Assembly (NCBI GenBank): GCA_963558905.1
Contig: CAUWJA010000001.1
Coordinates: 1 to 33,494, forward strand
Origin: an uncultured Eggerthellaceae bacterium
GTDB taxonomy: Bacteria > Actinomycetota > Coriobacteriia > Coriobacteriales > Eggerthellaceae
Reading direction: 5' to 3'
Length of the DNA stretch: 33,494 nucleotides
The position numbers and the translations under genes were made by a program. The notes beneath the pieces are model-generated. The model saw nothing but the letters and a program-made list of their open reading frames with translations. It was not told the DNA's origin and did no database searches. Below are positions 27,427 through 30,922 of the stretch, piece by piece (position 1 is the stretch's first letter; every line of letters starts with the position of its first letter).

Positions 27427-28176
<750 letters not shown>

Positions 28177-28218: not shown

Positions 28219-29631
28219 CTACAGGTCGGCGGTCTTGATGGCCAGCACGTCGCGTGCGGGCTCGGTGTCGGGCGTCCACGGGGTGGAGCCGCTGGATGCA
28301 CCCGGGCCTTTGCGGCCGAAGCGCCCCTGCTTCTTCGGCTTGCTGTGGGCGATTTGGCGGTTCGCGGTCTTTTCCTCCATGCGGCGCGTCCAGGCGCTCA
28401 TGGGCAGCGTCACGATCAGGTAGAAGATGGCGGCCACGATGTAGGGCGTGATGTTGCCCGTGTTGGCCGTGATGACCTTGGCGAACATGACGGTTTCGGA
28501 CAGGCCGACGGCAGCCAGAAGCGAGGTGTCCTTGTACAGCAGGATGAACTCGTTTGTCACAGTGGGGATCACACGGCGGAACGCCTGGGGGATGATGACG
28601 TGCAGCATGGTCTGCGCGCCGGTCATGCCCAGCGAGCGCGCGGCTTCGAACTGGCCTTTGCTGATGGACTGGATGCCTGCGCGGAAGATCTCGCACAGAT
28701 AGGCGCCGGAATTGAATGCCATGACGATGGCGCCCAGGACGAAGTTGTCGAGCGCGATGCCCAGAAGCGGCAGGCCGAAGAACGCGATGTAGATCTGCAG
28801 GAACATGGGGGTGCCGCGCACCACGTTGACATAGACGCTGGCCACAGCGCGCGCCAGACGGAACTTCGACATGCGCAGAAGCGCTGCCAGGAATCCCAGC
28901 GGAACGGCCATGGGGATGCCGCAGAGCACCAACCCCAGGGCGGTGAGCCAGCCTTTGGCCACTTGGGGGAAGCTGGTCACCATGATGGTGGGATCGAAGA
29001 ACAGGTGCAGAAACGTGTTGGAGTTCCAGGCCTGCACCCAGGATTGGCCGGAGAGCCACTGGGAGATCTGCTCGGCAGCGGAGATGCCGGTGACGGTGAT
29101 GGCGTCGGGGGCGACGGTGTCTACGGCGGTCCCGTCCATGCCGGTGGCGGTGCCTGCGATGGTGAAGCTCCCGCCGTCAGCGGGCAATTCCACCTTGTAC
29201 ATCTCGATGCGGATCAAGAGGCCTGCGGGCGTGCCTTCAGGGAAGTCGATGGTGACATCGCCGTTTTCCACATAGGTCTCGGTGGCCACCTCGATGCGGT
29301 CAAGGCCGTCGAGCGCTGTGACTTTGACCTGGTCGGCCATCAGGTGGGTGCCCTCGGGCATGTCAAGCGTCACTTGGGAGAGGCTCTCGCCCTGGTCGGC
29401 CTGCGCCTCCCATGTCACGCGGGTGGGTGTTGCCCCCATGATGTTGCCCGTGCCGTCTTGGTTGGGCTTGGCCGTGCAGGACGTCACCTCGAGCGCGCAG
29501 GCATCGGCGGGCGAGGCCATGGCGGCTGCGAAGGTGCATGCGACGGCGGCGAAGGCGAGAGCCGCAGCAAGCGAGAATGCAGCCAGGGCGCGGGTGGCGA
29601 AAGAGCTGGGTTGGTCGGTCATGGAAGTCAC
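28219..29631 (-). CDS. Polar amino acid ABC permease with extra N-terminal extracytoplasmic domain
   Basis: C-terminal half YVNVVRGTP, AYLCEIFRAGIQSI.KGQFEAARSLG, LYKDTSL. N-terminus is a signal peptide plus a ~150-aa soluble domain. Start could be 29622. Confidence 0.9.
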   Translation of the reverse strand: MTSMTDQPSSFATRALAAFSLAAALAFAAVACTFAAAMASPADACALEVTSCTAKPNQDGTGNIMGATPTRVTWEAQADQGESLSQVTLDMPEGTHLMADQVKVTALDGLDRIEVATETYVENGDVTIDFPEGTPAGLLIRIEMYKVELPADGGSFTIAGTATGMDGTAVDTVAPDAITVTGISAAEQISQWLSGQSWVQAWNSNTFLHLFFDPTIMVTSFPQVAKGWLTALGLVLCGIPMAVPLGFLAALLRMSKFRLARAVASVYVNVVRGTPMFLQIYIAFFGLPLLGIALDNFVLGAIVMAFNSGAYLCEIFRAGIQSISKGQFEAARSLGMTGAQTMLHVIIPQAFRRVIPTVTNEFILLYKDTSLLAAVGLSETVMFAKVITANTGNITPYIVAAIFYLIVTLPMSAWTRRMEEKTANRQIAHSKPKKQGRFGRKGPGASSGSTPWTPDTEPARDVLAIKTADL

Positions 29632-29754: not shown

Positions 29755-30639
29755 CTAGTTGGCAGAAGCGCCGAACCACTTCTGATAGAGGGCGTCATAG
29801 GAGCCGTCGTCCTTGGCTTTGGCCAGTGCGGCGTTGAGCGCCTCGGTCAATGCAGGGTTGTTCTGGTTGACGGCGATGGCGTACTGCTCACCGGTAGGAA
29901 TCTCCTGGATGACCTTGCAGTCGGTGTAGGCGTTGCTGACGTAGTACTGGACCACAGGCAGGTCGGCCACGATGCCGTCGATCTGGCCGGCCTGCAGGGC
30001 GGCGAAGATGGCGGTCATTTCGTCATAGGCGATTACTTCGGCGCCGTCGATGTTCTCAAGGGCCCAGTCGTAACCGGTGGTGCCGCTCTGGGCGCCGATC
30101 TTCTTACCGGCCAGGTCATCGGCGGATGCTGCGGAATCGGAGGTCAGGACCACGACGCCTTGGTTGGAGTCGCAGTAAGGATCGGTGAAGGTGATCTGCT
30201 CCTCACGTTCGGGGGTGATGGTGAAGGAGGAGACGCCCACGTCGGCCTTGCCGCCGGTCTGGATAACGCCGACGATCGAGTCGAACTTCATCGTGGGCAG
30301 GTACTCGCACTCAAGGCCCATCTTGTCAGCGAGCAGATTCATGAGTTCGACCGCAAAGCCGACGGGCTGGTTGTCGGAGTCGGCGCTTTCAAACGGAGGG
30401 AAGTCAAGCGATGCGGCCACGGTCAGCGTGCCGTCGGTCACCAGCTGGATGTCGCCGGCGTCAGCGGCATCGGTGCCGGCGCTGCCGGAAGAGGAGCTCG
30501 ACGAAGAGCTGGAACTGGAGGAGCTTGAGCTGGAGTCGCTGCTGTTCGAGCAGCCGGCGAGGACGAGTCCGCCAAGGCAGAGCGCCAGGCAGAGCGCCGC
30601 TGCGGCGGCGAAGAGGGGTTTGGCTTTGAAGTTCTTCAT
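29755..30639 (-). CDS. Polar amino acid ABC substrate-binding lipoprotein (SBP family 3), probably basic amino acid/arginine
   Basis: Lipobox LAGC, poly-Ser linker, DFPPFE, SSFTITPERE, GAQSGTTG; GAAAGGA RBS before ATG 30639. Specificity inferred only from the leader. Confidence 0.9.
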   Translation of the reverse strand: MKNFKAKPLFAAAAALCLALCLGGLVLAGCSNSSDSSSSSSSSSSSSSSSSGSAGTDAADAGDIQLVTDGTLTVAASLDFPPFESADSDNQPVGFAVELMNLLADKMGLECEYLPTMKFDSIVGVIQTGGKADVGVSSFTITPEREEQITFTDPYCDSNQGVVVLTSDSAASADDLAGKKIGAQSGTTGYDWALENIDGAEVIAYDEMTAIFAALQAGQIDGIVADLPVVQYYVSNAYTDCKVIQEIPTGEQYAIAVNQNNPALTEALNAALAKAKDDGSYDALYQKWFGASAN

Positions 30640-30652
30640 GGGAGATCCTTTC

Positions 30653-30690
30653 AAAAATAAAAACACCCATCGGACGGCTTGGATGGGTGC
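30653..30690 (-). terminator. Intrinsic terminator inside the 5' leader (attenuator)
   Basis: gcacccatc-caagccgtcc-gatgggtgt followed by ttttattttt, ending just before the SBP RBS. Confidence 0.85.
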
Positions 30691-30730
30691 TGCGAAATGT
30701 AGTCATGGATATGCTCGGAAAATCACGCAG

Positions 30731-30775
30731 TCACCTTTGTCGTCGTCGCTCCTCGGCATGTCGTGCGTAGAACAT
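30731..30775 (-). CDS. Arg-rich leader peptide MFYARHAEERRRQR
   Basis: GGAGG-5 nt-ATG TTC TAC GCA CGA CAT GCC GAG GAG CGA CGA CGA CAA AGG TGA. Confidence 0.75.
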   Translation of the reverse strand: MFYARHAEERRRQR

Positions 30776-30849
30776 GGCTTCCTCCGTTTCAATCGGTTAC
30801 AACGGGCCTTTTGGGCGCTTCGTTGCTTTAGTCGGTTAAAGTGTTGAGC

Positions 30850-30878
30850 ATTATCGAATAAATATGCACCATTAGCAA
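30850..30878 (-). promoter_or_regulatory. Housekeeping-sigma promoter of the ABC operon
   Basis: TTGCTA-17 bp-GATAAT on the minus strand within an AT-rich island. Confidence 0.7.
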
Positions 30879-30922
30879 GTACAAATTTAAAAATATTCAA
30901 ATTGATGATAAGTTTATGCAAT
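30853..30922. promoter_or_regulatory. Putative ARG boxes (ArgR operators)
   Basis: Minus-strand cores TGCATATTTATTCG (30855-68), TGAATATTTTTAAA (30886-99), TGCATAAACTTATC (30907-20). The last two are 21 bp apart. Confidence 0.6.

Follow-up and report, generated by a model that had tools for sequence, protein, structure and literature searches.

The window, the whole stretch of 33,494 nucleotides analysed here, lies on contig C1. A leader region on its minus strand precedes a three-gene operon for a polar amino-acid ABC transporter, in the order substrate-binding protein (SBP), permease, ATPase:

29755..30639, minus strand: SBP_bac_3 substrate-binding lipoprotein, predicted to bind arginine (Pfam PF00497 and predicted Arg contacts)
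28219..29631, minus strand: polar amino-acid ABC permease with an N-terminal extension (TIGR01726 over cut-off)
27427..28176, minus strand: polar amino-acid ABC ATPase, GlnQ/ArtP-like (profile matches)

The extension of the permease (≈ 200 residues ahead of the transmembrane domain) has no NCBIfam name. Profile searches of the genome assembly, which is 1.76 Mb and 76% complete, found argG, argR and arcA, and no argC over the cut-off.

The nearest named homologs of the SBP are from Eggerthellaceae (Coriobacteriia). Its best NCBIfam match, a Lys/Arg/Orn SBP, is below cut-off, and the HMM names are not decisive. We aligned the SBP to chain 6svf, whose residues fit the numbering published for the arginine-binding protein of T. 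maritima (TmArgBP; PMC4022495) at an offset of 18; the structure entry list of 6svf also contains 4PRS and 4PSH, entries named in that paper. The TmArgBP paper lists Asp37, Phe38, Glu42, Phe76, Arg101, Gln142 and Asp183 as contacts of arginine. All seven mappable contacts have their counterpart in the SBP (D79, F80, E84, F119, R145, Q184 and D226); Ser131, from the same contact list, could not be mapped. From its sequence, the operon is predicted to encode an arginine importer.

The region upstream of the SBP gene contains the following elements:

30886..30920, minus strand: ARG-box-like half sites in tandem, lying 5' of the promoter, a weaker predicted ArgR operator (tandem PWM)
30878-30873 and 30855-30850, minus strand: -35 and -10 boxes of a sigma-70-type promoter-like site with a 17-nt spacer (motif scan)
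30855..30868, minus strand: ARG-box-like palindrome in the promoter spacer, a predicted ArgR operator (PWM, second-highest single site in the genome)
30785-30781, minus strand: Shine-Dalgarno sequence GGAGG of the leader ORF (sequence)
30775-30731, minus strand: leader ORF of 14 codons, 5 of them Arg (4 CGA and 1 AGG; sequence and homologs)
30748-30740, minus strand: tandem CGA control codons (sequence; switch position in ribosome-masked folding)
30735-30726, minus strand: predicted 5' strand of the antiterminator, spanning the leader stop codon (folding and covariation)
30694-30686, minus strand: predicted 3' strand of the antiterminator, overlapping the 5' arm of the terminator (folding and covariation)
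30653..30690, minus strand: intrinsic terminator, stem 30690-30663 and U tract T5-A-T5 at 30663-30653 (folding and homologs)

The U tract abuts the ribosome site of the SBP gene with its 3' end. A previous sequence-only reading of this DNA had described the upstream ORF (uORF) with its ribosome-binding site, the terminator and the competing helix on the minus strand, and we found all of them where it had placed them. It was also right that the antiterminator 5' strand begins 13 nt past the first tandem CGA, as the coordinates bear out. The promoter that it had proposed is present as a site at the locus, but with one such site observed against 0.4 expected in shuffles it is weak on its own; the -10 region is common to the homologous leaders. 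A TAAAGC-like motif lies ≈ 15 to 25 nt 3' of the -10 box (30825-30835), often within a small 5' hairpin, and is common to this leader and L002, L004, L005, L008 and L242-L246. A T-box or known riboswitch was rejected, since the window had no Rfam match at gathering score and six related loci gave none at E values of 0.1 or below. The differences listed for the leader in contigs of related strains (30653, 30703 and 30723) spare the uORF and the core helices, a weak indication given how few the changes are. One contig from an RNA library spans 30704-30900; it continues past the promoter on the upstream side and may derive from DNA, which makes it uninformative on transcript ends.

The ARG-box-like site in the promoter was overlooked by the sequence-only reading. 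The tandem half sites further upstream rank 16 of 147 in the genome and are kept in the ortholog of genome G015. The PWM was derived from 34 sites at arg genes of other genomes with a consensus as seed and its scores are favoured by AT-rich DNA, so that the second rank of the palindrome is supportive only. Repression of the promoter by ArgR would probably add an initial, coarse level of control, by analogy with TrpR at trp.

We analysed the folding of the leader in several ways. The terminator stem has a predicted energy of -14.3 kcal/mol (z -3.5; 1 of 200 shuffles was equally good) and the antiterminator one of -14.2 kcal/mol (z -2.2; 6 of 200 shuffles). In a stricter test of the antiterminator, sequestration of the terminator arm was scored and the upstream segment was shuffled. 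Sequestration was 0.56 against a shuffle mean of 0.29, and 29 of the 200 shuffles matched it. The antiterminator of this copy is thus unexceptional alone, and its support comes from the homologs described below.

Ribosome-masked folding was carried out with the first free base set 9 or 13 nt past the start of the A-site codon. In this leader, in the a-type SBP leaders and in most argG leaders, the terminator arm was sequestered for as long as the ribosome had not passed the Arg codons and became free directly beyond them; the two b-type SBP leaders gave a blunt modelled profile. Masked folding had been put forward by the sequence-only reading as a check, and in the leaders with a clear profile the antiterminator was indeed lost once the ribosome reached the last Arg codons or had just passed them, but the switch is predicted to be shallow in this copy. 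The codons positioned to work here are limited to the upstream CGA, the first tandem CGA and perhaps the second; the final AGG is not among them. The antiterminator merely equals the terminator in energy (-13.8 to -14.5 kcal/mol for the latter), spans about half of the terminator arm, and has an outer helix whose register is shifted relative to the homologs. The equilibrium probability of the terminator was 0.6 to 0.7 with the ribosome at the first tandem Arg codon versus 0.84 to 0.96 at later positions. Since the terminator still forms at 0.6 to 0.7 at equilibrium, the switch of this copy would depend on the order of folding. Our models predict that this genome carries a shallow switch and that the homologous copies are sharper. 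No trp-like protector (1:2) hairpin is predicted in this copy, in which a ribosome at the start codon leaves the arm sequestered; knockout of the start codon should therefore yield read-through. A dip consistent with a protector hairpin was seen by masked folding in five argG leaders.

For a comparison of leaders, we collected 33 SBP homologs in 30 loci, one of them without upstream DNA. An Arg-run uORF with a terminator was present at 5 of the 33 homologs, in three genomes: G016 and G024 each have a tandem pair, and the fifth is the present copy. From these five leaders we built a covariance model, which retrieved five more, in G006, G007, G012, G014 and G017. The family thus comprises 10 copies of four types in 8 of the 28 genomes of the genus. 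In these leaders, whose ORFs are 13, 14 or 16 codons long, CGA accounts for 41 of 58 Arg codons, and 41 of the 43 CGA trinucleotides are in frame. The four SBP-type peptides are divergent and have little in common besides the Arg run.

All 80 cells of the terminator alignment are paired, with three of eight pairs changed on both sides (slid controls, 16-54%), and 44 of 50 cells of the antiterminator core are paired, with two of five pairs changed on both sides (slid controls, 12-66%); the four types are closely related, so these cells overstate the number of independent events and kinship inflates the counts. One core pair of the antiterminator varies as G-C, U-A and C-G. The conservation tests by which the sequence-only reading had proposed to be judged thus favour it: the 10 homologous leaders share the Arg-run uORF, the terminator and the antiterminator, with compensatory changes.

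The five copies found by the covariance model (L242-L246) precede a hydrophobic ORF of 34 codons. This ORF is conserved, has a good ribosome-binding site and lies ≈ 90 to 130 nt 3' of the terminator; four of the five genomes have no close SBP homolog. The ORF may be what is left of the SBP signal peptide, or it may encode a small membrane protein that responds to arginine through the leader.

Among 150 family genomes the covariance model found no copies outside the genus, and none of five matches there had, on inspection, an Arg-run uORF together with a terminator; 12 weaker matches within the genus that were inspected were plain terminators or coding sequence. When the leader served as a DNA query across the genus, all that it matched was the promoter and the SBP start of G015. 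At 67 named SBP loci the leader was present only in two Slackia records, whose peptides are identical to copies already counted and which we left out of the 10. A metagenome scan with the SBP gave eight distant loci, none of them useful. The closest ortholog of our locus lacks the leader. In the G015 ortholog, whose SBP is 90% identical, the promoter and the ARG-box-like sites are kept and the uORF and terminator are absent:

L002:1259-1491: region of the G015 ortholog in which a short GC-rich leader replaces uORF and terminator

Judged by sequence, the difference between the two would reflect a recent loss or gain of the attenuator.

The sequence-only reading had also suggested that leaders of arginine biosynthesis genes and argS be scanned for the same design. 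We found it upstream of argG in 22 of the 24 genus genomes with an argG 5' end, and it was absent at argS in five of five genomes. Nor was such a leader present at argR (five genomes), arcA (three) or one argC locus. The argC of L046 (contig C1 of G024) matches its profile over no more than positions 1 to 142 of 345, in an open frame of 207 aa, and looks broken or truncated; the other four genomes examined had no argC over the cut-off. The uORF of the argG leaders is 30 to 33 codons long, contains two or three Arg doublets and lies ahead of a terminator; this genome is one of the 22:

L040:508-690 (G000, contig C114): argG leader of this genome, upstream of argG, conserved with covariation in the genus

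After two duplicates had been dropped, the alignment held 20 distinct argG leaders, in which CGA makes up 80 of 148 Arg codons and indels ahead of the first doublet are whole codons. Pairing of the antiterminator reaches 87.9% of cells, against 40-48% in slid controls, and both sides have changed at 7 of its 12 pairs. The argG leader peptides have residues in common beyond Arg, and these fall in the antiterminator helix. In the argG leaders of G000 and G015 the terminator has been rebuilt with an extra hairpin. The two exceptions are L194 (G018), which keeps the terminator without leader ORF and antiterminator strand, and L190 (G027), which has neither.

Outside the genus, we examined the best 67 argG matches in the same family, a set in which kin are not independent. 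The argR gene lies directly 5' of argG in 35 of these 67 genomes, and in 32 of the 35 the C-terminus of ArgR is RRR, for which CGA supplies two or three of the codons in nearly all cases. None of five genus genomes with argR elsewhere has an RRR tail. In 28 genomes, a complementary sequence past the argR stop codon closes a hairpin over the final codons; a stretch rich in pyrimidines comes next, and then another hairpin and C-rich sequence. A free-standing uORF with a terminal Arg run, 30 to 47 codons long, lies upstream of argG in 16 of the best 67 genomes, and several of these uORFs have an ArgR-like tail and hairpin. L199 and L216, two of 12 candidates in one set, were dropped for want of a terminal Arg run.

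L153-L156, L159, L160, L162, L164, L170, L172, L173, L176 and 23 loci among L199-L238: argR-argG junctions, 32 of the 35 with an RRR tail
L152, L157, L161, L167, L168, L171, L200, L205, L217, L224, L226, L227, L229, L232, L233 and L236: free-standing uORFs upstream of argG

In 10 of 10 free-standing-uORF genomes examined, which are 85-99% complete, argR was not found; these uORFs are possibly remnants or replacements of argR. The coding tail of ArgR may be an arginine sensor for argG, in which case translation of the repressor itself would gate the biosynthetic genes behind argR. Since the hairpin overlaps the control codons, Rho-dependent or translational control would be as likely here as intrinsic termination.

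To gauge how unusual the codons of the leader are, we counted codons in 630 long ORFs of this genome, in which CGA makes up 5.0% of Arg codons. The leader does contain the five Arg codons, four of them CGA, that the sequence-only reading counted; the binomial probability is 3 × 10-5 for at least four CGA among five Arg codons and 5 × 10-4 for at least five Arg in 13 codons, both calculated post hoc. A terminator lies downstream of 55 of the 2343 short ORFs with Shine-Dalgarno sequence and ATG in the genome. Only three of these 55 have four CGA codons: this leader, the argG leader and one on contig C19. In five relatives, a search with one pattern found tRNA-Arg genes with ACG and CCG anticodons and no TCG anticodon in any of the five, and in the incomplete assembly of this genome only TCT and CCT anticodons were detected. 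Because ACG and CCG but no TCG tRNA-Arg was found, CGA is probably read through wobble by the ACG(ICG) tRNA. Wobble reading of a CGA run would make the leader sensitive to modest falls in tRNA charging.

We conclude from the comparison of sequences, with a probability of roughly 0.8, that the leader is a classical ribosome-mediated transcription attenuator keyed to Arg-tRNA and layered on ArgR repression, ahead of a predicted arginine importer. The attenuator itself was the interpretation advanced by the sequence-only reading, and conservation, covariation in the homologs and the same design at argG all support it. The leader has what the class is known by: an ORF with its own ribosome-binding site and a run of control codons, an intrinsic terminator between leader and first gene, a control amino acid that fits the downstream function (through the predicted Arg contacts and the argG leader), and, by covariation and masked folding, an antiterminator that excludes the terminator and is open to pairing with the ribosome at the control codons but hidden once it is at the stop, a feature that is weak in this copy taken alone. 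When charged Arg-tRNA is low, the ribosome would wait at the upstream CGA, at the first tandem CGA or perhaps at the second. It would then leave 30735-30726 free to pair with 30694-30686 and so occupy the base of the terminator arm; with the terminator blocked, RNA polymerase would continue into the transporter operon. If the ribosome instead moves on to the stop codon, it would cover 30735-30726, the terminator would fold and transcription would end near 30655.

The main competitor holds that the leader senses the general speed of CGA decoding (as set by how much ACG tRNA there is, by its inosine modification, by growth rate or by translation stress) or does no more than fix the level of read-through, and that arginine control is mainly the task of ArgR. 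The strong preference for CGA over the common CGC and the apparent lack of a TCG tRNA are points for it, as are the ARG-box-like site and the G015 ortholog, which manages with the promoter alone. In the his leader of Salmonella, Arg-Arg pairs containing CGA are described to cause de-attenuation without starvation (PMC4046918), a result that shows that CGA codons can drive an attenuator, yet equally feeds this competitor. On the other hand, the design was found specifically at argG and the predicted arginine importer, with only the three cases among the 55 terminator-linked short ORFs. The failure to find argR in any of the 10 free-standing-uORF genomes examined also fits a leader that is itself the arginine sensor. 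We regard this competitor as unlikely.

The leader could also encode an arrest peptide, of which SpeFL, TnaC and the erm leaders are precedents, with the ribosome stalled at R-x-R motifs by free arginine, ornithine or citrulline or by a ribosome-binding drug. Both R-R-R and R-Q-R do occur in the run, leaders that respond to antibiotics are cited as having an Arg-Leu-Arg motif (PMC8632094), and the argG leader peptides have their residues in common beyond Arg. These residues, however, sit in the antiterminator helix, and the SBP-type peptides differ outside the Arg run, where an arrest peptide would be conserved. Synonymous codon choice is constrained, which an arrest peptide does not need, and stalling at high arginine would activate synthesis and uptake when they are not needed. 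Such a peptide is very improbable here. Equally improbable is a decayed, non-switching relic whose terminator is a constitutive dampener and whose uORF is being lost, which would suit the weak antiterminator, its shifted outer helix and the loss in the closest ortholog, but this copy retains an intact Shine-Dalgarno sequence, start and stop codons, CGA run, U tract and pair of helices, and the few related-strain differences noted above weakly point the same way.

How does a classical attenuator keyed to Arg-tRNA compare with known systems? Leader-peptide attenuators are familiar from the enterobacterial trpL, hisL, thrL, leuL, pheL and ilv leaders. Like these, the present leader has a run of cognate codons in a short ORF and an antiterminator that overlaps the 5' arm of an intrinsic terminator. 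As at trp, the attenuator is combined with a repressor site at the promoter, here a predicted one. It differs in that the control codons are Arg, mostly CGA, that the targets are an importer and argG, that the antiterminator strand spans the leader stop codon, and in the protector hairpin, which is not predicted in this copy. By these testable features the leader would belong to the classical class, as an arginine-keyed variant extended to uptake. The usual controls of arginine genes are repression by ArgR and Arg T-boxes; our leader resembles these in serving an arginine regulon and in its ARG-box-like site, and differs in being translated and in lacking a T-box match in Rfam.

In Actinobacteria, attenuators are described for trp, trpS and leuS (PMC1262725), and the cysS leader uORFC-8-2 is given as an example of an attenuator (PMC8632094). 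PMC1262725 reports no conserved RNA structure upstream of arginine operons in the Actinobacteria surveyed and T-boxes for arginine genes elsewhere; it also reports that the ilvB and leuA leaders of Streptomyces look similar but did not act as classical attenuators. Sensing by Arg codons has two described precedents. Salmonella orf34 (speFL), the leader of speF, has two consecutive Arg codons at which pausing in low arginine refolds the RNA and raises downstream expression (PMC6386406). It has 34 codons, encodes a conserved peptide, works through Rho, unmasking of the ribosome-binding site and RNase G, and controls ornithine decarboxylase; it differs from our leader in that the abstract describes no intrinsic terminator/antiterminator pair (PMC6386406). 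S. aureus rbfL, likewise a short uORF, detects a shortage of arginine when ribosomes pause at its rare Arg codons, but these codons are AGA/AGG, control is translational, pausing blocks the downstream ribosome-binding site and lowers expression, and the target is a biofilm regulator (PMC13009471).

The sequence-only reading knew of no classical bacterial attenuator keyed to Arg-tRNA. Arginine is indeed among the amino acids without an established attenuator of the leader-peptide class, but Arg-codon-sensing uORFs are in print (PMC6386406 and PMC13009471). Our literature search, made by titles and the starts of abstracts in a collection with few subscription papers, gave no Arg-keyed attenuator with an intrinsic terminator and none for Coriobacteriia; it also returned nothing on an ArgR tail as sensor or on a case of an attenuated transporter. 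What would be new is the classical intrinsic-terminator switch keyed to arginine; Arg-codon sensing as such is already known.

If our reading of the leader is right, classical attenuation extends to Arg-tRNA and to amino-acid uptake, and rare, wobble-read CGA codons serve as the sensor. The observations beyond the genus suggest something broader, for and against which we see about equal odds: that the arginine regulon of the Eggerthellaceae is built on CGA-run sensors in three forms, namely attenuators at the importer and argG in this genus, the argR tail, and, where argR has been lost, a free-standing uORF with the tail and hairpin preserved. If the argR tail acts in this way, a protein-coding gene would double as an amino-acid-sensing leader peptide, which would be a new architecture of attenuation. 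The Eggerthellaceae are gut bacteria with an arginine-leaning physiology, and the leader, if read correctly, would provide a sequence-level handle on arginine control in this family.
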